This document shows positions 324-63,518 of a DNA stretch of 64,000 nt, piece after piece. Numbering within the stretch: the stretch's first letter is position 1; every line of letters starts with the position of its first letter. This stretch comes from Verrucomicrobiota bacterium (lineage in GTDB: Bacteria > Verrucomicrobiota > Verrucomicrobiia > Limisphaerales > JAXMHQ01), in the NCBI GenBank assembly GCA_046346665.1, contig JAXMHQ010000001.1, positions 131,896 through 195,895 on the forward strand, given 5' to 3'. The translations under genes were made by a program, and so were the position numbers. The notes under the pieces were generated by a model. That model searched no databases, was not told where the DNA came from, and worked only from the letters and a program-made list of their open reading frames with translations.

Positions 324-399
324 GGTTGCAAGTTGCAGGTTGCAGGTTTGACGCCCGAGAGCGTCTTTTCCTGCAACTTTCAACCTGCAACCTGCAACT
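324..399. repeat. word-periodic hairpin (GTTGCAG family) between convergent genes; likely bidirectional terminator
   Basis: Left arm ggttgcaagttgcaggttgcaggtt. Right arm cctgcaactttcaacctgcaacctgcaact. ~21-nt loop. Confidence 0.8.
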
Positions 400-413
400 C
401 GGTCAAAGTCCGC

Positions 414-1472
414 CTACTTCCTCTTCGCCGTCATGTCCCCTTCCCCGACCGAGAACCGGATTTCGCTGACGGGGTTGGTGCCGACAAAGTCGCATTGCAC
501 GTCGGTGGTGGTGGCGAAGAAATGGGTTGGAGACTCGGCGTGCAGGAGGAACGTGGCGCCGCCGAAGTTGAGGGACAACAGACCGTCGCCGGCCCGCCGC
601 ACCTGGACGAGGTCGTTGTGGCCTCGGTCGTAGTCGCCCGCGTAGCTGTCCAGCAACGCGTCCGGCAGCATCAATTCCTTCCGGCCCTTGCCGATTTCGC
701 GGACCCAAACGTTCCGGTATCGCACCGGGTTGCCGTGATCCTGGAAGGCGATCGGCAATTTCTCCGGGTGGGCTTTGTAGGGTGCGCGCTCCAGCCAGGA
801 GGTCGGCCCGGTGAGTTCCACGTGGTTCTGAACCAGCACGCCGTTTTGGAAAACGGTCAGGAACGCCTTGGAAAGCAGCTTGCCGTCGACGTCAAACCGC
901 GGGGCGGTCCAGACGATGTCGTAGGTCTGCCATTGGCCGGCGGGGCGGCAGACATTCACCAGGGGCGGATACTGTCCGTAAACGGAGGCCGCCGTGCCGT
1001 CCGCGTAACTCTTGCTTTCGTAGGAATCGAGCACCTGGATTTCGTAACGGTCGTAGCCGAAAAACACGCCGCTGTTGCCGCGGCCCTGTCCGCCGCCGTG
1101 CGGCGGCATCGGCGTGCACCATTCCACGTGCAACTGGCAGTCACCAAAACTTTGCAGCGTCCGCACATACCCGCTGCCGGGCACGCATTCCATCGCACCG
1201 TTCTTGATGATCCATTTCGTCGGCTTGCCGTCCATGGCCGCCCATTGCGACAGATCCTTTCCGTCGAACAACACGACCGCATCCGAAGGCGCCTGTCCCG
1301 GCTGTTCCTGGGTGCTGCACGAACCGGGCGTCACGGCCGGGGGCTGCGGCCGCAGCCGGTCGTGTTCCAGCCAGTTCGGATCCGGCTGCGCCTGAACCAG
1401 GGCGGCGCGGCCCGCGACAACGAGGGCGATGCACAGGGACCGGGACAACGGGGAGAGCGGGAATAGTTTCAT
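414..1472 (-). CDS. secreted DUF1080 (3-keto-disaccharide hydrolase-like, ConA/LamG fold) protein
   Basis: Signal-peptide-like start MKLFPLSPLSRSLCIALVVAG at an internal ATG of ORF 414..1547. DUF1080-type motifs are present: LFDGKDLSQW, WIIKNGAMEC, GNSGVFF, YEIQVLDS, NGVLVQN, IAFQDHGNPVRYRNVWVREI. Confidence 0.8.
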   Translation of the reverse strand: MKLFPLSPLSRSLCIALVVAGRAALVQAQPDPNWLEHDRLRPQPPAVTPGSCSTQEQPGQAPSDAVVLFDGKDLSQWAAMDGKPTKWIIKNGAMECVPGSGYVRTLQSFGDCQLHVEWCTPMPPHGGGQGRGNSGVFFGYDRYEIQVLDSYESKSYADGTAASVYGQYPPLVNVCRPAGQWQTYDIVWTAPRFDVDGKLLSKAFLTVFQNGVLVQNHVELTGPTSWLERAPYKAHPEKLPIAFQDHGNPVRYRNVWVREIGKGRKELMLPDALLDSYAGDYDRGHNDLVQVRRAGDGLLSLNFGGATFLLHAESPTHFFATTTDVQCDFVGTNPVSEIRFSVGEGDMTAKRK

Positions 1473-1548
1473 AGAATCAAGTGGGCCGAAGTTATCCGGG
1501 GCGCCCGGCGATGGCAACCTTTCAGCGTTCCCGAACTTTGACAGCATG

Positions 1549-1626
1549 GACAGAATTCACAGAATGAATAGTGCCATGCGGCGTTCCGTTTTCCGGAGTC
1601 ATTCGGTCCATTCGGTTCATTCTGTC
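1549..1626. repeat. word-periodic hairpin (CAGAAT family)
   Basis: gacagaattcacagaatgaata ... tcattcggtccattcggttcattctgtc, imperfectly complementary arms around a 28-nt loop. Confidence 0.7.
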
Positions 1627-1721
1627 AAACCGGATTTTCAAGGGGTCCTGCAAACAAACGAGGGTTCCCCGCGTTGACAATCGGCCGCGGGATACGCAAT
1701 TTGGGGCCGGAAGAACGGATT

Positions 1722-1967
1722 GTGCCCATTTACGAATACGAATTGTGCGACGGGGAGTGCAAGGTCTGCGGGGGCCGGTTCACGCTGCGCCGGCCGCTGA
1801 GCGCACCGCCTTTGGCCCAGTGCCCGGCCTGCAAAAAGCCCGTGCGCAAAATCATTTCCAGCTTCAATTCGCCGATGAAACTCAAGCCGCTTTCGGTGTC
1901 CGACGCGAAGAAGGCCGGGTTCACCGTGCTCAAAAAAGTCAGCAAGGGGGAATATGAGCGCCAATAA
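1722..1967 (+). CDS. FmdB-family zinc-ribbon protein (CxxC...CxxC)
   Basis: (V)PIYEYELCDGECKVCGGRF...CPACKKPVRKI is the typical FmdB/CxxC_CxxC_SSSS N-terminus. A GTG at 1722 gives the canonical PIYEY start. Confidence 0.7.
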   Translation: MPIYEYELCDGECKVCGGRFTLRRPLSAPPLAQCPACKKPVRKIISSFNSPMKLKPLSVSDAKKAGFTVLKKVSKGEYERQ

Positions 1968-2102
1968 CGCCGTCCAGGCGGTCCTGGTGAGAAAAAACAT
2001 TGCGCCATCCCAGCCAATTTGGCTTTATCAGGCGGGCCCGACCGGTGTGTCCGGGCGCCGGCGCCTGAGGATGGGGCTGGGATCGACGGGCAGCCGGGCG
2101 GT

Positions 2103-2387
2103 ATGAACCGACGCCGAATGACGGTGCTGTATTCGGGTCACGTCCAGGGTGTGGGATTCCGTTACGCCGTGAAGTCGACGGCGGCCGGGTATGAACTGGC
2201 CGGGACGGTTCGAAACCTGGCGGATGGGCGTGTGGAGTTGATTGCCGAAGGGCCGAGGGAGGAACTTGAAGCCTTCCGCGCAGCCATCCGGGATTCCGGG
2301 ATGGATCACTTCATCCGGCAGGAAGATGTGGCCTGGAGCGAAGCGACAGGATCGTTTCGCGGGTTTGAAATAGTGAGATCATACTGA
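2103..2387 (+). CDS. acyP: acylphosphatase
   Basis: VLYSGHVQGVGFRYAVKSTAAGYELAGTVRNLADGRVELIAEG is the acylphosphatase signature (V.G.VQGVGFR). The start is taken at the internal ATG 2103. Confidence 0.85.
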   Translation: MNRRRMTVLYSGHVQGVGFRYAVKSTAAGYELAGTVRNLADGRVELIAEGPREELEAFRAAIRDSGMDHFIRQEDVAWSEATGSFRGFEIVRSY

Positions 2388-3109
2388 TGAAGTTCGCGAT
2401 TATAGCCGATATTCACGCCAACCTGGACGCCTTCCAGGTTGTGCTCGAGGACATCAAGGCGCAAAAGTGCACCCACTACGCCTGCCTCGGCGACGTCGTC
2501 GGCTACAACGCCAACCCCAAGGAATGCCTCGAAATCGTCCGCTCCATGGGCATGCCCTGCGTCAAGGGCAACCACGACGAATACTGCTCCAGCAACACGG
2601 CGCTCGACGGCTTTAATCCCGCGGCCGCCGAAGCGGTCAACTGGACCCGGCAACAGCTCAGCGAGGAAGACCGTCAGTGGCTCCGCGACTTGAAATATGT
2701 CCGGATGGTCACCAGCTTTTCCATCGTTCACGCCACGCTCGACGGACCGCAGCGATGGGGTTACGTCTTCGACAAGCTCGCCGCCGCAGCCAGCTTCACC
2801 TACCAGAACACCGCCGTCTGCTTTTTCGGACACACCCACGTCCCGGTCGCCTTCATGCGCGACAACATGGTCCGCGGCGGCACCTACTCCAAGTTCAAGG
2901 TCGAACCGGGCAAGAAATATTTCGTCAACGTCGGCGCCGTCGGCCAGCCGCGCGACAATAATCCCAAATCCGCTTACGTCGTTTACGACATGGACGAGGG
3001 AACGATCGAACTGCGCCGGCTGGAATACGACATCGCGGCGGCCCAGAAAAAAATCCGCGACGCCGGCCTGCCGGAGCGCCTGGCGGAACGGCTCGCCTAC
3101 GGGCGCTGA
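2387..3109 (+). CDS. metallophosphoesterase family protein (YfcE/MJ0936-like)
   Basis: MKFAIIADIHAN...LGDVVGY...GNHDEY...GHTH metallophosphoesterase motifs. The start overlaps the acyP stop (ATGA). Confidence 0.85.
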   Translation: MKFAIIADIHANLDAFQVVLEDIKAQKCTHYACLGDVVGYNANPKECLEIVRSMGMPCVKGNHDEYCSSNTALDGFNPAAAEAVNWTRQQLSEEDRQWLRDLKYVRMVTSFSIVHATLDGPQRWGYVFDKLAAAASFTYQNTAVCFFGHTHVPVAFMRDNMVRGGTYSKFKVEPGKKYFVNVGAVGQPRDNNPKSAYVVYDMDEGTIELRRLEYDIAAAQKKIRDAGLPERLAERLAYGR

Positions 3110-3205
3110 ACCGACATCACCGGCGGACGCGGGTCCCGTCCTTCACACGGACCCCATTCAGGATCCGGCCCGCCTTCGCGGGCCCGGAAACCCTTCGTTC
3201 AACCT

Positions 3206-4222
3206 TTGAAGACCTTGATTCTCAAACCGAGTTCGCTCGGGGATGTCATCCAGGCGCTGCCCGTGCTGCGACTGCTCAAACGGCATCAGCCCGGCAACCA
3301 GGTCTATTGGTGGATCGATTCGGAACTGGCCCCGCTCCTGGAAGGCGACCCCGACCTCGCCGGGCTCGTCCTTTTCGAGCGGCGCCGCTGGACGTCCCCC
3401 CGCCGCTGGCCCGAAGTCTGGCGCAGCGTGCGCTGGATGCGGGATCAACACTTCGATCTTGTCCTCGACCTTCAATGCCTCGCCCGCAGCGGCGCGTTTG
3501 CGTGGCTCGCCAACGGCAAACTGCTCGTCGGACTCGACGACGCCCGCGAAGGCGCGCGCGGCTTCTACGACCTGGTCGTCCGGCGCGAATCCCCGCTCAC
3601 CCACGCCGTCGATTGGTACCTCGGCACCCTCCGCGCCCTCGGCATCCCAACCTCCGGCCGCTTCACCTGGCTGCCTGTCCGCGCCGCCGCCGCGGAGGAA
3701 ATTCGCCGGCGCGATGCCCACAACCATCGCTGGATCGTCCTTCAGCCGGGCGCACGCTGGATGAACAAGCGCTGGCCCGTCGAACACTTTTCCGAACTCG
3801 TCCGCCGGCTCGCCCAAAGCCACCCCGGCCATCGCCTGGCCATTCTCGGCGGAAAATCCGACGCGGAACTTGGCGCCGCCATCACCAGCGCCGCCCCGCG
3901 GGCATGCCTCGACCTCACCGGCAAACTGTCCCTGCCGGAAATGATCGAATGGATCCGGCTCGCGCGGCTCATGATCTCCAACGACACCGGCCCCATGCAC
4001 GTCGCCGCCGCCGTCGGCACCCCGCTCGTCGCCTTGTTCGGCCCGACCGAACCCTGCCGTACCGGCCCCTACGGACAGCTCCGCGAGTCCATCCAGGTCG
4101 CACTCCCCTGCGTTCCGTGCATGAAATCCCAGTGCACCTACGTCCGCCCCCTGGAATGCCTGCGCGCCATCACCCCCGAAATGGTCCACGCCCGCGCCGC
4201 CGCCGCGCTCAAGGACAGGTAA
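3206..4222 (+). CDS. glycosyltransferase family 9 (ADP-heptose:LPS heptosyltransferase-like)
   Basis: ILKPSSLGDVIQALPVLRLLK at the N-terminus and ISNDTGPMHVAAAVGTPLVALFGPT near the C-terminus are classic GT9 motifs. Confidence 0.85.
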   Translation: MKTLILKPSSLGDVIQALPVLRLLKRHQPGNQVYWWIDSELAPLLEGDPDLAGLVLFERRRWTSPRRWPEVWRSVRWMRDQHFDLVLDLQCLARSGAFAWLANGKLLVGLDDAREGARGFYDLVVRRESPLTHAVDWYLGTLRALGIPTSGRFTWLPVRAAAAEEIRRRDAHNHRWIVLQPGARWMNKRWPVEHFSELVRRLAQSHPGHRLAILGGKSDAELGAAITSAAPRACLDLTGKLSLPEMIEWIRLARLMISNDTGPMHVAAAVGTPLVALFGPTEPCRTGPYGQLRESIQVALPCVPCMKSQCTYVRPLECLRAITPEMVHARAAAALKDR

Positions 4223-4223
4223 G

Positions 4224-4388
4224 CTCCAAAAACCTGGTAATGTCCTGATCTGCAATTCGGAAGATGTCCGCTGTACCAGGGCTGCGCCCCGCGCAGCCGG
4301 CACCGCGGAGCGGCGGCTTACCAACCCGTTTGCTCGGTCGAAAACACACCTTTCAACAATAGGATTACCAAAGGGATTACCAAAGATC
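4224..4388. repeat. word-periodic inverted repeat (GGTAATCC/CCAAAG family) with ~110-nt loop containing an inner GC hairpin
   Basis: Left ctccaaaaacctggtaatgtcctgatc. Right aggattaccaaagggattaccaaagatc. The inner hairpin is ggctgcgc-cc-cgcgcagcc. Confidence 0.65.
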
Positions 4389-4424
4389 TTGCGACTTTCC
4401 CGCGTCCCCCTACAGTAGAGTTTC

Positions 4425-5348
4425 ATGAAGATTCCAGCTTTCGTCCTGGCCTTCTGGCTGGCGCTAACCGCCGCCGCCACAGCCCAGGTCTCCGTCGAAG
4501 TGGTGCTCGACCAGGAACATTTCCTCCCCGGCGAAACCATGAACGTCGCCGTCCGCATCATCAATCGATCCGGCCAAACCCTCCAACTGGGCGCCGACCC
4601 CGACTGGCTCACGTTCGCGGTGGAATCCAAGGACGGTTATGTGATCCTGAAAAACGGGGATGTGCCCGTCGTGCAACCCTTCACGCTGGAATCCTCCAAG
4701 CGCGCCACGAAGCATGTCGACCTGGCCCCCTACTTCAACCTCACCAAGGAAGGCGCCTACACGGTTTCCGCGACGGTGAACATCAAGGAATGGAACCGCC
4801 AGTTCACCAGCCAGGCGCGCATGTTTGAAATCATCAGGGCCGCTTCGCTGCGGGACATTGAAGTGGGCGTGCCGCGCCCCGCGGGTTCGACCAACTCCGA
4901 ACCCCAGCTCCGGAAATACAGCCTGCTCCAGGCCAATTACCTCCGAAAAACCCTCGTGCTCTACGTCCAGATCACCGACGGCGCCGGCAAACTCAAACGC
5001 GTCTTCCCCATCGGCCCCATGATCTCGTTCGGACAACCCGAACCGCAGATCGACAAAGACAGCAATCTCCACATTCTCTACCAGAGCGGCCCGCGCCTGT
5101 TCCGCTATTTCATCATCACGCCCGACGGCGAAGTCATCGGGCGCCAGACCTACGAATTCACAAACCGCCCGCGGTTGAAGGTGGGAGAGAATTCGCAGAT
5201 CTCTGTGGAAGGCGGACGCCGCCGGATCACGGACGAGGATATCCCGTCGCCCGACGCCGCCGATGCAGCCGGGACAAATTCGCCCGCCCTTCCGGCCACG
5301 AACGCCGCTCCGGCTTCGGCGCCGCCTCCCGCACCAGCCGTTAAATAA
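4425..5348 (+). CDS. secreted hypothetical protein (signal peptide, Pro/Ala-rich tail)
   Basis: MKIPAFVLAFWLALTAAATAQ signal peptide, GC3-rich coding frame, C-terminal low-complexity PALPATNAAPASAPPPAPA. No family recognised. Confidence 0.6.
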   Translation: MKIPAFVLAFWLALTAAATAQVSVEVVLDQEHFLPGETMNVAVRIINRSGQTLQLGADPDWLTFAVESKDGYVILKNGDVPVVQPFTLESSKRATKHVDLAPYFNLTKEGAYTVSATVNIKEWNRQFTSQARMFEIIRAASLRDIEVGVPRPAGSTNSEPQLRKYSLLQANYLRKTLVLYVQITDGAGKLKRVFPIGPMISFGQPEPQIDKDSNLHILYQSGPRLFRYFIITPDGEVIGRQTYEFTNRPRLKVGENSQISVEGGRRRITDEDIPSPDAADAAGTNSPALPATNAAPASAPPPAPAVK

Positions 5349-5353
5349 AAAAA

Positions 5354-11775: not shown

Positions 11776-11953
11776 GTCGAGGGTCGAAAGCCGAGAGTCG
11801 AGGGCAGGAGCTGGCGGCGGGTCGACGCGATCGTTGGATTCCAGGCGTACTGACAAGAGGGGCCTCCGCGATTTTACAATCGCGGCTACCGGTCAGGGTT
11901 GAGAACCATCCGCCACGTCGGGCCCTCGACTCTGGACCTTCGACTCTCGACTC
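11776..11953. repeat. word-periodic inverted repeat (GTCGAGGG family) with ~115-nt loop
   Basis: Left gtcgagggtcgaaagccgagagtcgagggc. Right gccctcgactctggaccttcgactctcgactc. The loop has an inner hairpin ccgcgatt-ttac-aatcgcgg. Confidence 0.8.
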
Positions 11954-13562: not shown

Positions 13563-13576
13563 ACCGGTTTTTATCG

Positions 13577-13629
13577 GCAGATTTCGCAGATCAACGCAGA
13601 TTATCTGCGAAAACTGTGTAATCTGCGGA
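13577..13629. repeat. word-periodic hairpin (CGCAGAT family) after the guaB stop; terminator-like
   Basis: ggcagatttcgcagatcaacgcagat-t-atctgcgaaaactgtgtaatctgcgg. Same word family as 63461..63518. Confidence 0.7.
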
Positions 13630-13657
13630 CGCCTTTTCGACCCGGGAACGGTTGAAT

Positions 13658-15727: not shown

Positions 15728-15771
15728 GCCTTCGTTATACGTTTTCGCCCCAAAACTTAAAAGTATAAATC

Positions 15772-15850
15772 GTTAAAAGAGTTGAATGGTTGAATGGTTC
15801 AACCGTCCCGCGCGCCAGCTTTCAACCGTTCAACCGTTTAACAATTCAAC
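15772..15850. repeat. word-periodic hairpin (GTTGAATGGTT / AACCGTTCAAC family), copy upstream of the dUTPase gene
   Basis: gttgaatggttgaatggttcaaccg ... ctttcaaccgttcaaccgtttaacaattcaac. Confidence 0.75.
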
Positions 15851-16291: not shown

Positions 16292-16379
16292 GTTGAATCG
16301 TTGAACTGTTAAACGGTTAAATGGGAATGCCGGCGCCGCTATCCACACTTTTAACGTTTTAACCGTTTAACGATTCAAC
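16292..16379. repeat. word-periodic hairpin (same GTTGAA/GTTAAACGGTT family), copy downstream of the dUTPase gene
   Basis: gttgaatcgttgaactgttaaacggttaaa - 27-nt loop - ttttaacgttttaaccgtttaacgattcaac. Confidence 0.8.
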
Positions 16380-18068: not shown

Positions 18069-18080
18069 CGATATCGAGCG

Positions 18081-18170
18081 GTTAAATGGTTAAAAGGGTT
18101 GAATGGTTGAATGGTTGATTCGCGCGAGCGGGTCGACCATTCAACTTTTTTAACCGTTCAACCATTCAAC
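18081..18170. repeat. word-periodic hairpin (GTTGAATGGTT family) after the sigma-factor stop
   Basis: gttaaatggttaaaagggttgaatggttgaatggttga ... gaccattcaacttttttaaccgttcaaccattcaac. Confidence 0.8.
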
Positions 18171-23237: not shown

Positions 23238-23335
23238 TTGGATTAATGGATTAATGGATTGATGGATTACTGGATAAAGCGCGATCGCCGCGTGGAGCCA
23301 AAAATCCAATCATCCATTTATCCAATAATCCAGCA
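23238..23335. repeat. word-periodic hairpin (GGATTAATGGATT family) after the RND pump stop
   Basis: ttggattaatggattaatggattgatggattactggataaa - loop - aaaatccaatcatccatttatccaataatccagca. Confidence 0.8.
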
Positions 23336-24183: not shown

Positions 24184-25866
24184 ATGTTACGCGACTGGTC
24201 CGCCGCGTTGAAGCTGCTCCTGCTGGGAATAGCATGCCTGCTGGCTTATTCGGTGAGCTTGTCCGTGGCGGTGGTCGGGCCGGCTCTTGTGGCCGGCCTT
24301 GCCGCCATTTTGGCGCAAAACCGATGGATTGAAGCCCGGCCTTTGGGCCCGAGAATCCTGTCGGGCTTGGCCTGGATTGCGACCGCCATGACCATCGCCT
24401 TCGCGCTGCTGCCCGGCAGCCGGTTTTATGTGGAAGTTTACGTGTCCATCATGGTTTGGCTGACGGCCATGGCCTTTTTCCCTCTGCGTGCAGCGGTTCG
24501 GGTTTCTGCTGAATGGAAGAAACTCGGGATGACATGGATACTCCTCGGAATTGTGATTTGGATCGCGTCCGGGTACGCGGAGAATCGCGCGATAACTTTC
24601 TATTGCGGCATGTTATTCCTGATCGCCTGGCTGATCGCTCTTCAGCTCCTGTGGAAACTTCCGGCCGCTCTGCGTGTCGGGGCGAATTCGCTCATCCTGC
24701 TCAATCTTGGGCTGCCCCTGGCGAGTTGGCTTACTCACCCCAAAAACGCGGCTTCAACAACCGCATTTCCGGAAGAAGAACTGTATCTGTATGAATCCGC
24801 TCGAACCAACCAGCCGGGATTCAACCGCTGGTGCGGCGCATTCGACGAACAATGGCACAAGGTGCTGACGGAGGCGTTTTTGATCAACGGGGGTTATCGG
24901 CTGCGGCCCAACAGCCACTCAGTGCTTTTTGAGAGCCCGATAGCCATCAACAGCCTTGGATTCCGCGGTTCCGAACTATCGAACGACACGAATGTCTACC
25001 GCATTGTCGCACTGGGAGAGTCCACAACATTCGGGATCACCATCCGTTCCAATGATTGTCCGTGGCCCGAACTCCTGCAGCAGCTTATTGAATCGCGGAT
25101 TCACCCGGCCCGTCCTGTGGAAGTCGTTAATGCGGGTATCCCGGCTCTCACTCTTCCCGCCAACCTGGATCGGCTTACCCCCGAAATCCTGCCGCTCAAA
25201 CCCAACTTGATCATTTCCTATCATGGTTACAACGGGTTTTATCTGCTGCGCAGCGGCCTTTCGATACCGTTTGTCATCAAGGCCCCGCATTACCAGAAGC
25301 GTCCCATCAGATTGTTGGCAGATATTGAGTATAAAATGCGACTGGCTCTGGCGGTGCGGTCCGAGAAAAGCATGCTCGCTCTGAATCCGCCCGACACCCG
25401 AAAACCGCTGGACACTCCTTACGCAGAGGCCTACCGGCGGCTCATAGAAGTCGCGCGGAGCAACCACGTCCACCTGGCGCTCTGCAATTATTCCATGGCG
25501 GTGAACAGTCGAAGCCCTTTCGAAGTGATCCAGTTTTTCCAGCGGCGATTCGCGACGGCATTCTGGCAAGTAAAGGCCAATGATGTCCATTCCATGATTG
25601 TCCGGGAATTGACACGGCAAACTCCTGACGTCCTTTATGTCGACACCCATCCAGGCCTGGATGGAGATTACGACGAGTTCATCGATCTGATGCATTTTGC
25701 CCATGCCGGCGAAGCGCAGATTGCCGAGAACATTTATCAAGGAATCGAAACATTCCTGAGACAGGAATTGGGAAGTTCCGGATCCACTTCAAATGCGTTT
25801 TCGGCGGCTTCCTCCGCCATTTCCGCGGATTCGACCCGTGAAAATGCTCGGGGCGGCACGTTCTGA
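24184..25866 (+). CDS. polytopic membrane protein with C-terminal SGNH/GDSL-like hydrolase domain
   Basis: About 190-aa N-terminal region with ~6 hydrophobic helices. The catalytic-type block I is IVALGESTTFG, with a later NAG block and a C-terminal DLMHF (D-x-x-H). Codon third positions are visibly less GC-rich than in neighbours. Confidence 0.65.
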   Translation: MLRDWSAALKLLLLGIACLLAYSVSLSVAVVGPALVAGLAAILAQNRWIEARPLGPRILSGLAWIATAMTIAFALLPGSRFYVEVYVSIMVWLTAMAFFPLRAAVRVSAEWKKLGMTWILLGIVIWIASGYAENRAITFYCGMLFLIAWLIALQLLWKLPAALRVGANSLILLNLGLPLASWLTHPKNAASTTAFPEEELYLYESARTNQPGFNRWCGAFDEQWHKVLTEAFLINGGYRLRPNSHSVLFESPIAINSLGFRGSELSNDTNVYRIVALGESTTFGITIRSNDCPWPELLQQLIESRIHPARPVEVVNAGIPALTLPANLDRLTPEILPLKPNLIISYHGYNGFYLLRSGLSIPFVIKAPHYQKRPIRLLADIEYKMRLALAVRSEKSMLALNPPDTRKPLDTPYAEAYRRLIEVARSNHVHLALCNYSMAVNSRSPFEVIQFFQRRFATAFWQVKANDVHSMIVRELTRQTPDVLYVDTHPGLDGDYDEFIDLMHFAHAGEAQIAENIYQGIETFLRQELGSSGSTSNAFSAASSAISADSTRENARGGTF

Positions 25867-31407: not shown

Positions 31408-31475
31408 TGGGGTGTTGGAGTAATGGAGTATTGGATTACCGGGACCCATCACTCCACCACTCCACCACCCCATTC
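31408..31475. repeat. word-periodic hairpin (GGAGTAATGGAGT / ACTCCACCACTCC family) after the Gfo/Idh/MocA stop
   Basis: tggggtgttggagtaatggagtattggattacc ... ccatcactccaccactccaccaccccattcc (imperfect). Confidence 0.65.
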
Positions 31476-33925: not shown

Positions 33926-34016
33926 CGCAGGTAGGGACGCCGCGCTGCGGCGTCCGCGGTCGGCGCAGCGCGCCGACCCTACCTTTTGCGGCTACGACAT
34001 TTCTTGAGCCGCTCTA
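33926..34016 (+). repeat. 91-bp structured repeat, copy 1 (100% identical to 55537..55627)
   Basis: cgcaggtagggacgccgcgctgcggcgtccgcggtcggcgcagcgcgccgaccctaccttttgcggctacgacatttcttgagccgctcta, compared base by base with the second copy. Confidence 0.95.
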
Positions 34017-34610
34017 GGAGAGCTGATTCGCAATGAAGGCGGCGCACTCGGCGGCGTGGGTCATGGAGATCAGGTGTCCGCCTTCCAGGGCCAGATCCGG
34101 TGCGGGCGGACAGGGAATGATGCGGTCCTTCCGTCCGTGGAGCCGGTAACAGGGAGTGGACGAGGAGTGCAGTCCTTTCCATTGGAACACAGCGTGGCAC
34201 ATTGCCCGGACAAAATCGGTGTCGCTGTCGGCAAACATCAGGGTGAAATCGTGTGGCAAATGGCGCGCGGCGCGACGCAGGGTTTTCCAGGGCGTCACCG
34301 CGGCCAACGGATGGAGCAAGCTGAAGAATCGGTTGATTTCCTGTCGGTGCGTGGCGCTGCCGACGAGGAACAGGGCGCGCAGATTCCGGATCCGGGCGAT
34401 CTCACACGCGACCATGCCGCCCAGCGAAGCGCCGATGACAGTATCCTGATCCTGGATGCCGAAGTGTTCCACCACCTGACGGGCCAGCGCGGGCAGGTCG
34501 CGTTCTCCCCGGTAAGGCGGCCAGTTATGGGCCGCGAAGGACGGGAGCGATTCCCAGGGGCGCGGGAACATCCGCCGATCCGCGCCCATGCCGGGGAGCG
34601 CGTGAATCAT
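34014..34610 (-). CDS. alpha/beta hydrolase fold protein
   Basis: MIHALPGMGAD N-terminus and the nucleophile elbow GASLGGMVA. Confidence 0.65.
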   Translation of the reverse strand: MIHALPGMGADRRMFPRPWESLPSFAAHNWPPYRGERDLPALARQVVEHFGIQDQDTVIGASLGGMVACEIARIRNLRALFLVGSATHRQEINRFFSLLHPLAAVTPWKTLRRAARHLPHDFTLMFADSDTDFVRAMCHAVFQWKGLHSSSTPCYRLHGRKDRIIPCPPAPDLALEGGHLISMTHAAECAAFIANQLS

Positions 34611-36095: not shown

Positions 36096-36285
36096 CCGTC
36101 TCTATGCAGTCGGTTTTCCTGGGGATAAACGCAGAGGCGCGGAGGGCGCAGAGATTCGCAGAGAACTGGCGGCTTTTTCGGGGTCACCGATTGGTGAGCG
36201 ATTTGCCTGACCCATTTCTCTGCGGTCCTCCGCGTCCTCTGCGTCTCTGCGTGAGTTTGAGTTTTTTTGAATTGCATAGAGACGG
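36096..36285. repeat. nested inverted repeats: outer 15-bp pair plus inner word-periodic arms (CGCAGAGG family)
   Basis: Outer ccgtctctatgcagt / attgcatagagacgg. Inner acgcagaggcgcggagggcgcagagattcgcagagaa / ttctctgcggtcctccgcgtcctctgcgtctctgcgt. A T-run (gagttttttt) follows the right inner arm on the plus strand. Confidence 0.8.
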
Positions 36286-41641: not shown

Positions 41642-43825
41642 TCACTGGGGGTTGACCGACGCGGTGCCGGCGGTGGGAGCGGGCGCCGCGGGCGCTGTCT
41701 TGATGTCCGTCCCGAGCCGCTGCAAATAGGCGATCAGGGCGATGATTTCCCGGTCGGACTTCGCCGTCACGGACCCGGCCTTGAGGTTCGCCACCACTTT
41801 TTCCTGCTGGGCGGCGAGTTCCTTCTGCGCGGCGCCGTCTTCATAGCCGGTGGGGTAAGGCACGCCCACCTTGCGCAGCGCGCGAATGCGGGCCGACAGG
41901 ACGTCGGTGTTCAGCTTGTCCGTCAACAACCACGGGAAGCGCGGCATGATCGATCCCGGCGACGTGGAGCGCGGGTCGTCCATGTGATTGTAGTGCCACG
42001 CGTCGGGATACTTGCCCCCGATGCGCTGCAAATCGGGCCCGGTGCGCTTGGAACCCCACAGGAACGGATGATCGTAGACGAACTCGCCGGCCTTGGAGTA
42101 ATCGCCATAGCGCTCGGTTTCGGACCGGAACGGGCGGATCATCTGGGAATGGCAGCCGACGCAGCCTTCGCGGATGTAGATATCGCGGCCGAGGAGCTCG
42201 AGCGGCGTGTACGGTGTGACCGAGGTGATGGTGGGGATGTTGGATTTGACGAGGAACAGGGGGAGGATTTCGACCATGCCGCCGATGGCGACGGCGACGA
42301 AGGCGAGCACGGTGAAGAAGAGCGGTTTGCCTTCGAGCCAGCGGTGGCCGTGCCATTTGCTGTGAGGCGCGGCGGCGCCCGCGGCATGTTCGGGCGCGGC
42401 CACGGCCGCCTGGGCCTGTTCCTCGGGCAGGAACTGTCCGCTGCGCGCGGTCATGTAAAGGTTCACAACCATCATAAGCGCACCGGCAATGTAGAGGGAT
42501 CCGCCGATGGCGCGGAGTTCATACATCGGGATGATGTGCAGGACCGTGTCGAGGAAGTTTGGATACAGCAGGAAACCGTCCGCGTTGAACTGTTTCCACA
42601 TGAGGCCCTGGGTGACGCCGGAGGCATACATGGCGATGACGTAGAAGGCGATTCCGAGCAGGCCGGTCCAGAAATGGTAATTGGCCAGCTTGACCGACCA
42701 GAGGCGGGTGCGGTAGAGGCGCGGGAAGAGCCAGTAGAGCAGCGAGAAGGTCAGGAACCCGTTCCAGCCGAGCGCGCCGTTATGCACGTGGCCGATGCCC
42801 CAGTCGGTGTAGTGGGAAAGGGAGTTGACGGATTTGATGGACATCAGGGGTCCTTCGAGGGTGGCCATGCCGTAGGCGGTGACGGCGACGACCATGAACT
42901 TGAGCATGGGTTCCTCGCGGAGCTTGTTCCAGGCGCCGCGGAGGGTGAGCAGGCCGTTGAGCATGCCGCCCCAGGACGGCGCGATGAGCATGAGGGAGAA
43001 GACCATGCCGAGCGACTGCGCCCAGTCGGGGAGCGCGGTGTAGATCAGGTGGTGCGGCCCGGCCCAGATGTAGAGGAAAATCAGGGCCCAGAAATGGATG
43101 ATCGACAACCGGTAGCTGAACACCGGCCGGCCGGAGGCTTTGGGGAGGAAATAATACATCAGGCCGAGGTAAGGCGTGGTGAGGAAAAACGCGACGGCGT
43201 TGTGGCCGTACCACCATTGGACGAGGGCGTCCTGGACGCCGGCGTAGGCGGAGTAGCTCTTCCAGAGGCCGGCCGGCATTTCCATCGAATTGAAGATGTG
43301 CAGCATCGCGACCGTGAGGGCACTGGCGATGTAGAACCAGATGGCGACATACATGTGCTTCTCGCGCCGGACCGCCACCGTGCCGAGTAGGTTCACCGTG
43401 AACGCCACCCAGACAACCGCGATGGCGATGTCGATCGGCCATTCCAGTTCCGCGTATTCCTTGCTGCTGGTGATGCCCAGCGGAAGGGTGAGCGCGGCGG
43501 AGACGATGATTAATTGCCAGCCCCAGAAATTGAACCAGCTCAGGAAATCGCTGAACATCCGCGCCCGGCACAGGCGCTGGAGGGAATAGTAAATGCCCAT
43601 GAACATGCCGTTGCCCACGAACGCGAAGATCACCGCGTTGGTGTGCAGCGGCCGCAGCCGGCTGAAGGTGGTGTAAGGCAGGTTCAGGTTCAGCGCCGGG
43701 AAAAACAGCTGGCAGGCGATCAGCAGCCCGACACTGAATCCCACGATGCCCCACACGACCGTGGCGATCGCGAAGGCGCGGACGATTCGATTATCGTATT
43801 TAAACGTCTCTACGTTGGTGTTCAT
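41642..43825 (-). CDS. ccoNO: cbb3-type cytochrome c oxidase, fused subunits I and II (CcoN-CcoO)
   Basis: 727 aa. Heme-copper oxidase core (HFWALIFLYIW.GPHH, WGIGHVHNGALGW), then the CcoO part with CVGCHSQMIRPF heme c site. Confidence 0.95.
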   Translation of the reverse strand: MNTNVETFKYDNRIVRAFAIATVVWGIVGFSVGLLIACQLFFPALNLNLPYTTFSRLRPLHTNAVIFAFVGNGMFMGIYYSLQRLCRARMFSDFLSWFNFWGWQLIIVSAALTLPLGITSSKEYAELEWPIDIAIAVVWVAFTVNLLGTVAVRREKHMYVAIWFYIASALTVAMLHIFNSMEMPAGLWKSYSAYAGVQDALVQWWYGHNAVAFFLTTPYLGLMYYFLPKASGRPVFSYRLSIIHFWALIFLYIWAGPHHLIYTALPDWAQSLGMVFSLMLIAPSWGGMLNGLLTLRGAWNKLREEPMLKFMVVAVTAYGMATLEGPLMSIKSVNSLSHYTDWGIGHVHNGALGWNGFLTFSLLYWLFPRLYRTRLWSVKLANYHFWTGLLGIAFYVIAMYASGVTQGLMWKQFNADGFLLYPNFLDTVLHIIPMYELRAIGGSLYIAGALMMVVNLYMTARSGQFLPEEQAQAAVAAPEHAAGAAAPHSKWHGHRWLEGKPLFFTVLAFVAVAIGGMVEILPLFLVKSNIPTITSVTPYTPLELLGRDIYIREGCVGCHSQMIRPFRSETERYGDYSKAGEFVYDHPFLWGSKRTGPDLQRIGGKYPDAWHYNHMDDPRSTSPGSIMPRFPWLLTDKLNTDVLSARIRALRKVGVPYPTGYEDGAAQKELAAQQEKVVANLKAGSVTAKSDREIIALIAYLQRLGTDIKTAPAAPAPTAGTASVNPQ

Positions 43826-44004
43826 GGTTGGTTCTTCGGTTCCGATTCAACGGCAGGCTTCGGCGACTCCTCCTCCATCAGGACCCGGAGGGCCGGCGTG
43901 GAGATGTCTTCAAACTGGCCGCTCCGCGCGGCCCAAATGAATGCAAACAGAAATAAGACGGCCATGCCCAGGCTGGCCAAAATCAAAATCACAATCACGC
44001 TCAT
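43822..44004 (-). CDS. ccoS: cbb3 oxidase maturation protein CcoS
   Basis: MSVIVILILASLGMAVLFLFAFIWAARSGQFED is the CcoS signature. ATGA overlap with the ccoI stop. Confidence 0.8.
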   Translation of the reverse strand: MSVIVILILASLGMAVLFLFAFIWAARSGQFEDISTPALRVLMEEESPKPAVESEPKNQP

Positions 44005-46726: not shown

Positions 46727-46802
46727 GGATTAATGGATGAATGGATTCCTGGATTCAGGATGCCCAATCCAACAATCCAATTATCCAGCGATCCAACAAT
46801 CC
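46727..46802. repeat. word-periodic hairpin (GGATTAATGGATT family) in the ccoI-glgC divergent gap
   Basis: ggattaatggatgaatggattcctggattcag ... caatccaacaatccaattatccagcgatccaacaatcc. Confidence 0.75.
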
Positions 46803-48216: not shown

Positions 48217-48247
48217 CTTTTCACCACGAAGGCGCGAAGCGCACGAA
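48217..48247 (+). repeat. 31-bp direct repeat, copy 1 (orphan left arm, CACGAAG family) just after the glgC stop
   Basis: ttttcaccacgaaggcgcgaagcgcacgaag is 29/31 identical to 48799..48829. Confidence 0.9.
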
Positions 48248-48255
48248 GTTCAGAA

Positions 48256-48687
48256 TTACATCTGTTCCGGGCGGGCTTCCGGATTTTTCCGCGTGTGCCC
48301 CGTGTCCAGGATCAGGCGGGTGATGCCGTCTTTCAGAAGGCTGACATTGAAATTCAGCAAGAGCCCGACCCGAACATTCGCGAGCTTCATATAGGTTAGC
48401 AACTGGGCTTTGTGAATTGGATCAATGTTTGCGACGGATTTAAGCTCCACGATGATACCTCGATCCACCATCAAATCCAGCCGGTAGCCGCAATCGATGG
48501 CCATCCCCTTGTAGCAAACAGGCAATGGCACTTGCGCCTGAAATGGAATTTTTTGCAAAGCGAGTTCGTGCGCGAGGCAGTGTTCGTAAGCGGATTCCAG
48601 CAAACCCGGCCCGAGGGCGCGATGCACTTCTATGGCGCAGCCGATCAACCGGTTCGAGAGTTCTTCAAACTGAATGGTTCCCTGCAT
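48256..48687 (-). CDS. GxxExxY protein (PDDEXK_3 / PD-(D/E)XK nuclease-like family)
   Basis: IGCAIEVHRALGPGLLESAYEHCLAHEL carries the family-defining G..E..Y motif. D...VELK and QLLTYMK blocks follow. Lower GC than its neighbours. Confidence 0.85.
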   Translation of the reverse strand: MQGTIQFEELSNRLIGCAIEVHRALGPGLLESAYEHCLAHELALQKIPFQAQVPLPVCYKGMAIDCGYRLDLMVDRGIIVELKSVANIDPIHKAQLLTYMKLANVRVGLLLNFNVSLLKDGITRLILDTGHTRKNPEARPEQM

Positions 48688-48798
48688 GCTATTCCCTTTC
48701 CTTTATGAACCACGAGAATTCGAGATTCAACCTTGCATGAGAGAATAAAGCCGCGGGTAGGACAATGGCAGTCCAACCTCACAGAAACAGGGAAGACA

Positions 48799-48911
48799 TT
48801 TTTACCACGCAGGCGCGAAGCGCACGAAGATTTGTTCAGGGATAGCCTAACAAGAAAAACTTCGCGCTCTTCGCGCCTTCGTGGTGAACAAAGTCTTCGC
48901 CCTTCGTGGTC
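48799..48911. repeat. 31-bp direct repeat copy 2 plus its complementary arm (intact CACGAAG-family hairpin abutting the CBM48 gene stop)
   Basis: tttttaccacgcaggcgcgaagcgcacgaag - 30-nt loop - cttcgcgctcttcgcgccttcgtggtgaa, followed by a partial extra word gtcttcgcccttcgtggtc. Confidence 0.85.
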
Positions 48912-52439: not shown

Positions 52440-52466
52440 CACCACGAAGACACGAAGGACGCGAAG
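52440..52466. repeat. orphan left-type arm of the CACGAAG family upstream of the sigma-54 activator gene
   Basis: caccacgaagacacgaaggacgcgaag. No complementary arm lies nearby. It is complementary (~22/27) to the right arm at 50850..50876 on the other side of the gene. Confidence 0.75.
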
Positions 52467-52554
52467 AAATCTCTTTTGAGGGAAGTGCTGCTCCCGATTT
52501 TGCTTTTGCGCGGCTGCCGGATTTCCGACGCCGCGCCCGATCTCGCGAAGGCGG

Positions 52555-52588
52555 CCATTCCGCACTCCGCGTTCCGCATTCCGCATTT
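52555..52588. repeat. orphan right-type arm of the AATGCGG family abutting the pilC stop
   Basis: ccattccgcactccgcgttccgcattccgcattt. About 29/31 identical to the reverse complement of 55418..55450, 2.8 kb away. Confidence 0.8.
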
Positions 52589-55417: not shown

Positions 55418-55698
55418 GGAATGCGGAATGCGGAGTGCGGAGTGCGGAATCCTGGCGGAATGCGGGGTTCACGGATATAACCATCCTTTGATCCATTGAT
55501 GCCGCTCCATTATAGCGGTTTAACATAAACCGTAGCCGCAGGTAGGGACGCCGCGCTGCGGCGTCCGCGGTCGGCGCAGCGCGCCGACCCTACCTTTTGC
55601 GGCTACGACATTTCTTGAGCCGCTCTAAGGACAAGAACGAGCAGGGCTCCCCTGTTGCGCCGCCAGGATTCCGCACTCCGCACTCCGCACTCCGCGTT
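55418..55698. repeat. word-periodic inverted repeat (GAATGCGG/GAGTGCGG family) abutting the porin-1 stop, with a ~200-nt loop carrying the 91-bp repeat
   Basis: Left ggaatgcggaatgcggagtgcggagtgcggaatcctggcg. Right cgccaggattccgcactccgcactccgcactccgcgtt. Confidence 0.85.
55537..55627 (+). repeat. 91-bp structured repeat, copy 2 (fuller copy; outer stem extends to 55531..55600)
   Basis: Identical to 33926..34016. Here cgtagccgca (55531-55540) additionally pairs with tgcggctacg downstream of the ggtaggg...ccctacc stem. Confidence 0.95.
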
Positions 55699-60709: not shown

Positions 60710-60711
60710 TC

Positions 60712-61890: not shown

Positions 61891-62645
61891 TCCCCAAGGA
61901 ATTCATCCTCATGCTCGAAGACGTCCACAAGACCTTCGACGGTTTCAAAGCCATCTCCAACCTGACGTTCTACATGGATGACGGCGAACTCCGCGTCATC
62001 ATCGGACCCAATGGCGCCGGCAAAAGCACCATGCTCGACCTCATCACCGGCCGCACCCGGCCGGACAAAGGCCGCATCGAATTCGGCAGAAACACCGACC
62101 TGACCGAACTGAACGAATACCAGATCAACCGCCTCGGCATCGGCCGCAAATTTCAAACCCCCTCGGTCTACATCGACCACACCGTCGCGGAAAACATCTG
62201 GCTCTCCCTCAAAGGCGGCCGCTCCGTCTGGAGCACGCTGCTCGCCCGCCAATCGTCCGACCAGCAGGACCGCATCCAGGACGTGCTGAAAACCGTGGGA
62301 CTCGCCGGCTGGGCCGATTCCAAGGCGGGCGCCCTGAGTCACGGCCAGAAGCAATGGCTGGAAATCGGCATGCTGCTCGCCCAGGACCCGAAGCTCCTGC
62401 TCGTCGACGAACCGGCCGCAGGCATGACCGACGAGGAAACGCACAAGACCGGCGAACTGCTCCTCAGCCTCGAAGGCAAACACAGCATCGTCGTGATCGA
62501 ACACGACATGACCTTCGTCCGCCAGCTCGCCCGCCGCGTCACCGTCCTCCACCAGGGCACCGTCCTCTGCGAAGGCTCCGTCGACGAAGTCCAAAACAAC
62601 GAAAAAGTCATCGAGGTCTACCTTGGCCGAAAAAAGAAACATTAA
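61887..62645 (+). CDS. urtD: urea ABC transporter ATP-binding protein UrtD
   Basis: Walker A GPNGAGKST, signature LSHGQKQWLEIG, Walker B LLLVDEP. The start overlaps the urtC stop. Confidence 0.9.
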   Translation: MIPKEFILMLEDVHKTFDGFKAISNLTFYMDDGELRVIIGPNGAGKSTMLDLITGRTRPDKGRIEFGRNTDLTELNEYQINRLGIGRKFQTPSVYIDHTVAENIWLSLKGGRSVWSTLLARQSSDQQDRIQDVLKTVGLAGWADSKAGALSHGQKQWLEIGMLLAQDPKLLLVDEPAAGMTDEETHKTGELLLSLEGKHSIVVIEHDMTFVRQLARRVTVLHQGTVLCEGSVDEVQNNEKVIEVYLGRKKKH

Positions 62646-62671
62646 CCCCCCGCGCAACCTCGTTCCCCGGC

Positions 62672-62709
62672 TACAACCTTTTTGTCGTACGTACGACACA
62701 AAGGTTGCA
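62672..62709. repeat. 38-bp palindromic element, copy 2 (urtD-urtE intercistronic gap)
   Basis: tacaaccttttTtgtcgtac|gtacgacaCaaaggttgca. Same core as 10266..10305, with the mismatch at the same stem position. Confidence 0.9.
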
Positions 62710-62738
62710 CAGTCTGGCTGCGCGGATCCCTTGCACGC

Positions 62739-63434
62739 ATGCTGAACGTCTCCAGTCTCTCGGTTTCCTACGACGGCTCCCGCATCCTCCGGGGCGTGGA
62801 CCTCGCCGTGCCCGAACGCAGCCTCGTCTGCCTCATGGGCCGCAACGGCGTCGGCAAAACCACCACGCTCAAATCCATTGTCGGCCTCGTCAAACCCGAC
62901 GCCGGATCCGTCCGGCTCGCGGGCGAGGAACTGGCGGGATTGCCCCCCGAGGAGCGCGCCCGACGCGGGCTCGGTTATGTGCCGCAGGGACGCGACATCT
63001 TTCCGCACCTCACCGTCTGGGAAAACCTGAAAATCGGCCTGCTCGTGCGGGGCACGCGCCCCAACGGACAGGTGGACCGGGTCCTCGAACTCTTTCCCGT
63101 GCTCAAAGACATGCTTCAGCGCAAAGGCGGCGTGCTCAGCGGCGGCCAGCAACAGCAACTCGCCATCGCCCGCGCCCTGCTCACGGATCCCAAGGTGCTC
63201 ATCCTCGACGAACCCACCGAAGGCATCCAGCCCAACATCATCGACCAGATCGGCGACACCCTGCTCAAGATCAAGGGCGAAGGCCGGCTCAGCATCCTGC
63301 TGGTGGAACAATACCTCGATTTCTGCCGCTCCATCGGCGACAGCTTCTTTATCATGGACCGCGGCGCCGTCGTCGCCAGCGGCCCCATCGGCGGCCTCAA
63401 CGAGGAAACCGTCCGGCAACACCTGACCGTTTAG
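62739..63434 (+). CDS. urtE: urea ABC transporter ATP-binding protein UrtE
   Basis: Walker A GRNGVGKTT, signature LSGGQQQQLAIARAL, Walker B ILILDEP. ATG 62739; the upstream ORF-track residues are encoded by a palindromic repeat. Confidence 0.9.
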   Translation: MLNVSSLSVSYDGSRILRGVDLAVPERSLVCLMGRNGVGKTTTLKSIVGLVKPDAGSVRLAGEELAGLPPEERARRGLGYVPQGRDIFPHLTVWENLKIGLLVRGTRPNGQVDRVLELFPVLKDMLQRKGGVLSGGQQQQLAIARALLTDPKVLILDEPTEGIQPNIIDQIGDTLLKIKGEGRLSILLVEQYLDFCRSIGDSFFIMDRGAVVASGPIGGLNEETVRQHLTV

Positions 63435-63460
63435 CCATTCACGGTTTGCGGCGAAGAAAC

Positions 63461-63518
63461 GTCCGCAGTTTCCACAGATCTCGCAGAAAATCTGCGTCCG
63501 TCTGCGAAATCTGCGGAC
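63461..63518 (+). terminator. word-periodic hairpin (CGCAGA family) after the urtE stop; terminator-like
   Basis: gtccgcag-tttccacagatctcgcagaaaatctgcgtccgtctgcgaaat-ctgcggac. The outer 8-bp stem is perfect, with inner tctgcg/cgcaga words. Confidence 0.55.

Follow-up and report, generated by a model that had tools for sequence, protein, structure and literature searches.

Hairpins whose arms are tandem arrays of short degenerate words occupy much of the intergenic DNA in a 64,000-nucleotide stretch of a Verrucomicrobiota genome (contig JAXMHQ010000001.1, positions 131,896–195,895; hereafter the window), and we argue here that they are probably, for the most part, copies without a gene of the inverted tandem-word repeats at the ends of tiny selfish gene units. 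Two kinds of unit would be involved: one encoding a GxxExxY protein (about 125 residues, PD-(D/E)XK nuclease fold), and the other encoding a four-helix-bundle "23S rRNA IVS" (intervening sequence) protein, referred to below as IVP. The window holds one gene-bearing unit, of the GxxExxY kind (48217–48911), and about 17 gene-less hairpins.

Word-periodic inverted repeats had been proposed for most gaps of the window in an earlier note made from the sequence, and our analysis confirms that they are real. Tandem Repeats Finder detects arrays with a period of 7–9 nt and 2.5–4.8 copies at nearly every coordinate given in that note, an inverted-repeat search joins these arrays into about 16 paired loci, and minimum-free-energy folding yields long stems (−28 to −191 kcal/mol). 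At 11 loci both arms beat all 500 dinucleotide shuffles of the same arm for periodicity (p < 0.002 for each arm), placing the periodicity above shuffled controls. The 9.2 kb of intergenic DNA contains 18 strong inverted repeats, eight of which pass a strict ungapped periodicity filter, and 100 dinucleotide shuffles of this DNA give a mean of 0.02 inverted repeats and no periodic ones; in the 53 kb of coding DNA there are two strong inverted repeats, one of them periodic. Owing to the degeneracy of the words, most arrays escape a separate strict periodicity detector with a mismatch penalty of −3. Our curated list comprises 18 loci in about ten word families (Table 1). The locus at 4224–4388 is weak, as its left arm is a single approximate complement and no inverted repeat there exceeds the threshold, and the segments at 52440–52466 and 52555–52588 are not hairpins but solo arms of different families lying side by side. 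The arms at 52556 and 55418, a pair flanking two genes, are better described as two separate elements, one of them truncated. An inversion between hairpins does not fit the arrangement of the hybrid arms at 52443 and 52556; a deletion between adjacent hairpins does.

The hairpins share a common anatomy. Each word consists of a conserved core of 5–7 nt followed by 1–3 variable bases (TGGAT+NNN, TGGAGT+NN, GTTRAA+NN, CACGAAG+N(1–2)), so that the stem alternates between short helices and small internal loops, usually with three or four words per arm. The purine-rich arm comes first at 17 of the 18 window loci, and by 22 to 4 in the strict set once relatives are added; because a hairpin reads alike on both strands, this order is a true property of the element. 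The loops are GC-rich, range from 4 to about 200 nt, and can contain a canonical terminator (350–369, inside the hairpin at 318–398), an unrelated 93-nt repeat (55537–55629, nested in the loop of the 55418–55698 hairpin), a gene, or another word hairpin, as in L003 (L-numbers denote comparison loci outside the window, taken from related genomes, IMG/VR contigs and cultured-strain replicons). Mirrored word variants are common to both arms of the 16292 and 55418 hairpins, and adjacent hairpins share a word family more often than expected by chance (permutation p = 0.03).

The gene between the CACGAAG arms of the 48217–48911 unit encodes a GxxExxY protein (PF13366, E = 1.9e-43; TIGR04256, E = 5.6e-44). 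An alignment of 30 family members shows D71, E81 and K83 (D...ExK) to be invariant, along with the GxxExxY motif, and the alpha-beta core typical of PD-(D/E)XK nucleases is seen in an AlphaFold2 model of the window protein (pLDDT 82). A structure search returns only weak, generic PD-(D/E)XK matches, the best being Cas4 SSO0001 (E = 3.6e-3), with others to lambda exonuclease, the I-Bth0305I catalytic domain and Hjc, and no sequence relative of the protein was found in the PDB. The window protein also has a 16-residue C-terminal tail of low pLDDT (48256–48300) that is missing from its homologues; this tail reads through a terminator-like hairpin (48266–48288, plus strand) located between the gene body and the left arm. 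The earlier note had proposed a search for a co-occurring RAYT (REP-associated tyrosine transposase) or other binding protein, and such a candidate is indeed present inside a hairpin locus; it belongs to PDDEXK_3. Pfam finds no Y1_Tnp domain among the window genes, and the 64 kb lack any gene for a transposase, RAYT, integrase or reverse transcriptase.

Homologues of the GxxExxY gene occur in 14 other contexts, distributed over Planctomycetota, Desulfobacterota, Gemmatimonadota, Bacteroidota, Alphaproteobacteria and an archaeon, and word arrays lie beside every one of them. Those 68–74% identical to the window protein are bounded by arrays of the form AACCACGAAG..CACGAAG..CACGAAG / CTTCGTG..CTTCGTG..CTTCGTGGTGA, and CACGAAG arrays with matching termini are found at L162, L163 and L166 (Planctomycetes), where the L163 unit is beside rpoA/L17 and the L166 unit beside panC, and at L291 (Desulfuromonadales). 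The archaeal homologue (L292) has the variant word CGCAAAG. At 50–58% identity (L293, Bernardetia, Bacteroides finegoldii and Gemmatirosa) the words are CACAAAG, CACAGAG(G) and CGCAGAGG; the Bernardetia unit uses CACAGAG, the B. finegoldii unit uses CACAGAGG with termini TCACCAC...GTGGTGA, and in Gemmatirosa kalamazoonensis complete CGCAGAGG hairpins stand on either side of the gene. A gene-first search of IMG/VR contigs adds a 52%-identical protein with CACAAAG/CACGAAG arms and proteins of 38–42% identity with AT-rich words of 11–13 nt, while a single inverted repeat is found with a Treponema homologue. Each of the 11 proteins with 50% identity or more to the window protein has words of the form CRCRRAG. 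Judged from these sequences, gene and words go together, and proteins that are closely related have related words. Two of the window's hairpin words, CACGAAG and CGCAGAGG, are certainly among the words that bound GxxExxY units, and a third, CGCAGAT, probably is. The recurrence of word families described for the window extends across species and phyla. We infer that the encoded protein recognizes its words, and among the three mechanisms suggested earlier (slippage, templated repair and a protein that reads periodic words) the last fits best. In Sphingomonas parapaucimobilis (L348, 482837–483265), a GxxExxY gene with a CGCGAAG array sits between fabD and fabG, co-oriented with both and inside the core fatty-acid synthesis operon.

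Gene-less CACGAAG hairpins vastly outnumber gene-bearing units. The string CACGAAG-NN-CACGAAG-NN-CACGAAG occurs in at least 120 IMG/VR stretches, and a scan with hidden Markov models built from homologues found no GxxExxY gene in about 1 Mb of stretches carrying CACGAAG three times, among the matches listed. Likewise, no GxxExxY or IVP gene and no recurrent small protein family was found next to TGGAGT or CACGAAG hairpins in IMG/VR, among the matches listed. Within the same set of listed matches, the mode is three words per arm, the median element is about 105 nt, and left-right arm order prevails over right-left by 70 to 3. The element termini are conserved as TCACCACGAAG...CTTCGTGGTGA, and the outermost word, ACCACGAAG, is also conserved and differs from the inner CACGAAG. 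The spacer dinucleotides consist of purines in left arms and of pyrimidines in right arms, spacer bases pair in 45% of cases versus 42% with permuted partners, and there is no covariation between arms. Since the spacers are not complementary and the cores are kept, it is the word core, and not pairing, that is conserved. The TGGAGTNN family is present in L003, L010, other related loci and 47 IMG/VR stretches. Similarity between loops is seen only in diverged form and within one IMG/VR contig (L229, 3300018030_000010, 1155–4916), where three hairpins with the words CACAGAG, CACAAAG/CACAGAG and CACGAAG have loops of 73–81 nt that share TAAAAGCT and TTTTATGCATAG stretches, which suggests whole-element duplication followed by word change.

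The regular orientation of the arms could also be explained if the hairpins were repair scars, formed by nuclease cleavage of intergenic DNA, telomerase-like addition of tandem copies of a short template to both 3' ends, and rejoining of the ends around filler or local sequence. We regard this as highly improbable. It would account for a purine-rich word running 5'–3' towards the centre on each strand, for the missing target-site duplication, for unrelated loops within a family and for unequal word numbers on the two arms. IVP proteins are, in addition, relatives of Avd, a reverse-transcriptase partner in diversity-generating retroelements. PF05635, the IVP family, is listed in that context (PMC10053308). 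However, neither a reverse transcriptase nor a template RNA was found in the window or beside the cargo genes, the distinct conserved outer word suits a defined element end better than reiterative synthesis, and the mirrored variants in both arms of the 16292 and 55418 hairpins suit palindromic copying.

Comparison with relatives indicates that the hairpins are insertions. The closest public guaB genes belong to Limisphaerales (Verrucomicrobiota subdivision 3) metagenome-assembled genomes (MAGs) at no more than 85% protein identity, and with nearest relatives at 82–85% these comparisons are between species, not between strains. Orthologous gaps are 5–70 nt long and empty, or contain a different word family. 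The convergent gap 3' of guaB is 5–15 nt and hairpin-free in many related species, whereas it carries a CGCAGAT hairpin in the window, GGAGT-type hairpins in six loci (including L003, L010, L056 and L061), CGAAATC arrays in two (L003 being a GGAGTG hairpin with CGAAATC nested in it), an ACGAAGG hairpin in one (L006), and an IVP gene between GTCAG-word arms in four (including L033, L040 and L063). In L029 (11566–12224) and L039 (11578–12899) the same gap contains an AAA/zeta-toxin-like gene (MKSPRCIIIAGPNGAGKTTF...) and no hairpin, and the site seems to be a general landing place for small accessory genes. At the gap between the NtrC-type regulator and aldolase (FBA) genes, which is short and hairpin-free in most relatives, these have plain GC-stem and T-run terminators in place of the window's CACGAAG hairpin and its 194-nt loop. 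The exbB/dut promoter gap is 58–72 nt, hairpin-free and marked by a conserved promoter-like motif in most relatives. This motif (window 15728–15771, L001 13673–13746 and about 20 other loci) reads TTATACG-N15-GTTCAAAGGGCAAAGTT, or TTGAAC-N17-TATAAG on the exbB strand, and L001 has a 14-nt tandem duplication of it exactly at the site of the window's GTTRAANN hairpin. Density is patchy and differs by lineage, with 10 strict matches in the 64-kb window compared with 16 in the 1.19 Mb of relatives scanned; a few other genomes, such as L010, are dense. For the gene-bearing unit no empty site was found, as its CBM-glgC junction is not shared by any relative compared. Judged by these comparisons, which include nested insertions in L003 and in the loop of 55418–55698, the hairpins are inserted, family-structured and lineage-amplified elements. 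Arms of unequal length, such as 88 versus 38 nt in L010, and differences between species point to drift of word copy number by slippage, which does not explain where the elements come from.

The second kind of unit is recognized by the same architecture. Inverted word arrays stand on both sides of four-helix-bundle "23S rRNA IVS protein" genes (PF05635/TIGR02436): at the guaB site the arms are GTCAGNN, GTCCGTN arrays surround a 69%-identical IVP gene in a different context, and the L091 gene has the word AGTCCAA. On plasmids of cultured strains the words are GGGAAAA (Nostoc ATCC 53789), CAGGAGT (N. punctiforme), GGGTGTA (Calothrix), AAGGTTY (Riemerella) and AGGTGAC (Anabaena 90). In a crude automatic test, inverted periodic arrays span 17 of 25 cargo genes and 1.2–2.4% of random 380-nt segments. 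For the guaB-site clade no independent contexts emerged, the best 120 homologues appearing to be orthologues at the same site. From sequence, the window hairpins are architecturally the same as the arrays that bound these four-helix-bundle units. Two loci are further peculiarities: in L297 (900–1200), upstream of an IVP gene, a GGTCCGT hairpin encloses three copies of another word, CACGAAT, and on Anabaena sp. 90 plasmid pANA02 (L356, 44265–44633) the AGGTGAC/GTCACCT-flanked gene stands between cas6 and cas4, within a CRISPR-Cas locus.

The first IVP-family members were found within intervening sequences of rRNA that have processed stems at their boundaries, which raises the alternative that the arms form a long-range RNA stem from which RNase III excises the small gene out of host transcripts, gene-less hairpins being the remnants of gene deletion, with no recognition of words by a protein. 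Units are typically laid out as a purine-rich array, a gene in sense and a pyrimidine-rich array, they lie between co-oriented housekeeping genes (for example fabD-fabG or at radA) where an insulating stem would limit harm, and the gene of L033 is inverted between its arms relative to L040 and L063, all of which would suit such a stem. A processing stem, however, needs pairing and not a repeated word, and yet the cores are conserved and the spacers non-complementary. Arms can be as unequal as those of L010, several cargo genes have a single array or directly oriented arrays (in the window, in Sphingomonas and in Nostoc 7120), and deletion remnants do not explain so many gene-less copies with a constant three-word architecture. 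We therefore consider this explanation quite unlikely.

The position of the hairpins bears on whether they act at transcript ends. Of the 9 convergent gaps 4 contain a hairpin, as do 10 of the 37 gaps between same-direction genes and 3 of the 9 divergent ones (1537–1629, 15772–15850 and 46727–46802). In same-direction gaps the hairpin is closer to the stop codon of the upstream gene in all 10 cases, at 0–34 nt. Position, then, speaks for the hairpins being host transcript-end elements (terminators, 3'-end stabilizers or insulators) grown by slippage of a local 7–9 nt seed and templated correction of the other arm, with the small genes merely adjoining, as does the variation in word number between arms and species, which slippage predicts. 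In the same direction point the A-rich upstream and T-rich downstream flanks of CACGAAG elements in IMG/VR, the resemblance of the first word of the 15772 hairpin, GTTAAAAG, to the native site motif GTTCAAAG, and the L001 duplication at that site. Nevertheless, we judge an origin of this kind unlikely. No window hairpin has a T-run after its outer arm, as an intrinsic terminator would within 0–2 nt of its GC-rich stem, and a terminator scan shows no enrichment over shuffles, its matches falling in inner stems only. Canonical terminators exist inside or beside the arms (350–369 and 48266–48288) and serve the NtrC–FBA gap in relatives, hairpins occur in divergent promoter gaps, and short hairpin-free convergent gaps are common in relatives. 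The balance of G-T (13) and A-C (10) mismatches in spacers, together with their lack of covariation, gives no sign of selection on RNA pairing, and separate origins at each site cannot yield identical words and termini next to one gene family in six phyla. The proposal that slippage or templated repair builds terminators in place finds no support in these observations or in the empty orthologous gaps. By sequence, the hairpins are not classical terminators. A terminator or stabilizer role as a by-product is possible and would help explain the survival of insertions on the stop-codon side.

Other identities were considered and dropped. Arrays of −35-like boxes suit the GTTGAAT family only, and neither CcrM GANTC sites nor a tRNA or tmRNA identity was retained. 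Rfam 15 gave no match at gathering score, its sole match with E < 0.1 being an irrelevant miRNA model within a coding region. The arrays are also not CRISPR arrays, as the words are contiguous or 1–3 nt apart and the arrays come as inverted pairs, not as identical repeats with unique spacers.

We propose that the gene-less copies would arise as follows. Each word, with its core of 5–7 nt and usually three or four copies per arm, would be a putative binding site, and the array would bind a multimer of the cognate protein. We infer that gene-less copies are acted on in trans by the protein, which in the GxxExxY case is a nuclease, much as a RAYT acts on REPs and REPINs or a transposase on MITEs and foldback elements; the protein would copy or move them into intergenic DNA, chiefly to sites immediately 3' of stop codons, which tolerate insertion. 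Replication slippage would then shift the word number, and effects on transcripts (3'-end stabilization, processing and some termination) would be a secondary consequence and not the origin of the elements. Genes cognate to GGAGT, GGATT, GGTTRAA, GTCGAGG, GGAATGC, GTTGCAG and GACAGAAT presumably reside elsewhere in the genome. Several points weigh against this model. Within the 64 kb, no cognate gene is seen for 7–8 of the window's word families, and the tie of GGAGT and GGTTRAA to IVP-type words is one of resemblance only. Co-inheritance of a gene with its flanking repeats would by itself yield a correlation between word and protein, without direct recognition, and the two track imperfectly, as Sphingomonas keeps the CRCRRAG-type word CGCGAAG at 38% protein identity. 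There is no target-site duplication in CACGAAG elements (2–8 nt flanking direct repeats in 0 of 60) and no conserved target, and window copies of one family share arms but not loops, with no sign of recent whole-element copy-and-paste. Both the strict stop-codon-side preference and the A-rich/T-rich flanks are compatible with a terminator role as well.

Over 1,695 nt a Logan contig is 100% identical to the window, and one window protein is 99–100% identical to an NCBI entry. By Pfam, the window (62–65% GC) is otherwise made up of ordinary housekeeping genes, including guaB, exbBD, a cbb3 oxidase cluster, glgC, a class II aldolase, an NtrC-type regulator and branched-chain amino-acid ABC transport genes. 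A solo hexamer array (CAAAAT x3.3, 43978–43998) with no complementary arm nearby lies downstream of the cbb3 oxidase ccoNO gene (41642–43825, minus strand) and upstream of a P-type ATPase gene. The gene at 24184–25866, encoding a membrane-anchored GDSL/SGNH-like hydrolase, has a lower GC content (0.56), differs from the adjacent genes in codon composition and may stem from horizontal transfer.

Table 1 Word-periodic hairpins, solo arms and the gene-bearing unit of the window
Position	Feature	Word or family	Strand	Context and details
318–398	hairpin	GTTGCAG (7 nt)		arms 318–348 and 370–398; between two convergent stop codons
1537–1629	hairpin	GACAGAATN (9 nt)		divergent promoter gap
4224–4388	weak/partial case	GGATTACCAAAG		right arm x2 at 4362–4385, clear 12-nt duplication
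11776–11953	hairpin	GTCGAGG		6 nt past stop of cbiO-like ABC ATPase gene; loop ~100 nt
13576–13631	hairpin	CGCAGAT		between guaB stop and convergent zinc-ribbon gene stop
15772–15850	hairpin	GTTRAANN (8 nt)		divergent exbB/dUTPase-like gap, directly after conserved promoter-like motif
16292–16379	hairpin	GTTRAANN		8 nt past stop codon
16867–17033	hairpin	GTCGAGG		left arm overlaps 3' end of Rrf2-family gene
18080–18170	hairpin	GGTTRAAT		11 nt past stop of sigma-70 gene
23239–23332	hairpin	TGGATNNN		5-bp cores with 3-nt variable spacers between
31408–31472	hairpin	TGGAGTNN		
36129–36252	hairpin	CGCAGAGG		word family also beside GxxExxY gene of Gemmatirosa kalamazoonensis
46727–46802	hairpin	TGGATNNN		divergent gap
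48217–48911	composite gene-bearing unit	CACGAAG		left arm 48220–48250, gene, second left arm 48801–48833, right arm 48856–48888, right-arm remnant 48893–48911
48256–48687	GxxExxY gene (PF13366 PDDEXK_3, TIGR04256)		minus	143 aa
50630–50875	hairpin	CACGAAG		termini ACCACGAAG...CTTCGTGGT; loop 194 nt
52443–52467	solo left arm	CACGAAG		
52556–52587	solo right arm	GGAATGC (CATTCCG x4.6)		abuts stop codon
55418–55698	hairpin	GGAATGC/GGAGTGC		begins at base following stop codon; loop 201 nt
63461–63518	hairpin	CGCAGAT		

The earlier note had set these hairpins apart from repetitive extragenic palindromic (REP) sequences and bacterial interspersed mosaic elements (BIMEs), from enterobacterial repetitive intergenic consensus (ERIC) sequences and from MITEs (miniature inverted-repeat transposable elements), and the defining features of those classes are indeed lacking. 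The closest working analogy is the REP-RAYT system. Like REP/BIME/REPIN sequences and their RAYTs, the hairpins are high-copy short intergenic palindromes of family-specific sequence with a rare cognate gene flanked by repeats, gene-less copies presumably acted on in trans, and putative secondary roles in mRNA stability and termination. A REP, in contrast, is a single imperfect palindrome of 20–40 nt with a GTAG/CGTC tag, whereas the window arms are tandem words with no tag, and the REP partner is a Y1 HUH transposase in place of a PD-(D/E)XK-fold protein or four-helix bundle. The window does contain a GTAG-bearing palindrome (33929–33984 and 55540–55595), which is a different element from the word hairpins. 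It belongs to the 93-nt repeat, present in two identical copies (33926–34018 and 55537–55629) unrelated to the words and built as a GC-rich double palindrome (AGGTAGGGACGCCGCGCTGCGGCGTCCG / CGGTCGGCGCAGCGCGCCGACCCTACCT); a similar motif, CGGACGCC...GGCGTCCCTACC, follows guaB in L012. The closest architectural analogy is with eukaryotic foldback transposons and MITEs, which share long inverted arms of short tandem subrepeats, a variable word number, and a majority of copies with little or no loop alongside a few with genes between the arms. Foldback elements differ in being eukaryotic, with kilobase arms, known transposases and target-site duplications; the inverted termini of MITEs are present here, and their flanking direct repeats are not. 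The 23S rRNA intervening sequences that contain an open reading frame resemble the IVP units in that a PF05635 gene is enclosed by stem-forming inverted sequences, but they lie inside rRNA helices, are removed by RNase III and are not described as having tandem-word arms, whereas the present units lie between protein-coding genes.

The nearest descriptions are two sets of heptamer repeats, and a claim of complete novelty would be too strong: inverted tandem heptamers are known from Xanthomonas and tandem heptamers from cyanobacteria, both so far without an explanation of origin or function. Short tandemly repeated repetitive (STRR) sequences, known since about 1990, are tandem heptanucleotides dispersed in the intergenic DNA of Nostoc, Calothrix and Anabaena. 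Our analysis finds inverted heptamer arrays flanking four-helix-bundle genes on plasmids of these same genera, although STRRs have been described as direct tandem arrays useful for fingerprinting, and neither inverted pairing nor a gene association was found in their description. In Xanthomonas, GGGAATC heptamers form intergenic tandem arrays of strain-variable length with a preference for four units, lying near stop and start codons and under-represented between divergent genes; 70–75 cases per genome are convergent inverted pairs that could form stem-loops (Rehm et al. 2015, PMC4692102). The window, too, has head-to-tail units of 6–9 nt, three or more in number, in intergenic DNA, with complementary arrays convergent and close. 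The Xanthomonas arrays comprise one word family per genome, were interpreted as G-quadruplex-forming, and were not linked to a gene family (PMC4692102). The window, unlike Xanthomonas, has about ten word families and a gene-bearing unit, and its words (GTTGCAG, TGGATNNN, CACGAAG and others) lack the GGG runs of a G-quadruplex. A GGGAATC array overlaps the start codon of XCC0516 (supplementary table of Rehm et al., PMC4692102), a Xanthomonas campestris protein of the IVP family whose structure is in the PDB (2gsc). A full-text search, which covered few subscription journals, found no literature linking GxxExxY or four-helix-bundle genes to tandem-word inverted repeats.

It may be, though we hold this tentatively and at somewhat less than even chance, that GxxExxY and TIGR02436 proteins are the protein parts of miniature mobile elements whose words are read by protein multimers, and that these elements form an undescribed class, widespread among bacteria and archaea. 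The gene-bearing unit, about 0.5 kb long, would have inverted arrays of a clade-specific word of 7–13 nt at its ends, dozens to hundreds of gene-less foldback copies would lie in intergenic DNA, and one system would lie behind the Verrucomicrobial hairpins, the inverted GGGAATC arrays of Xanthomonas and the STRR heptamers of cyanobacteria. GxxExxY (TIGR04256/PF13366) and four-helix-bundle (TIGR02436/PF05635) proteins number from thousands to millions in databases, with unexplained roles, and the link between gene and word gives each specific small protein a specific word array as a testable partner. It also supplies an origin for the hairpins without genes, which in some genomes take up a sizeable part of the intergenic DNA. 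If true, annotation would improve, as many spurious "hypothetical proteins" are translated arrays, and the finding would matter for the assembly and binning of repeat-rich MAGs. The elements would amount to a second REP-RAYT-like system with another protein fold and another repeat architecture, and their proteins may possibly be small, sequence-programmable DNA- or RNA-binding modules.

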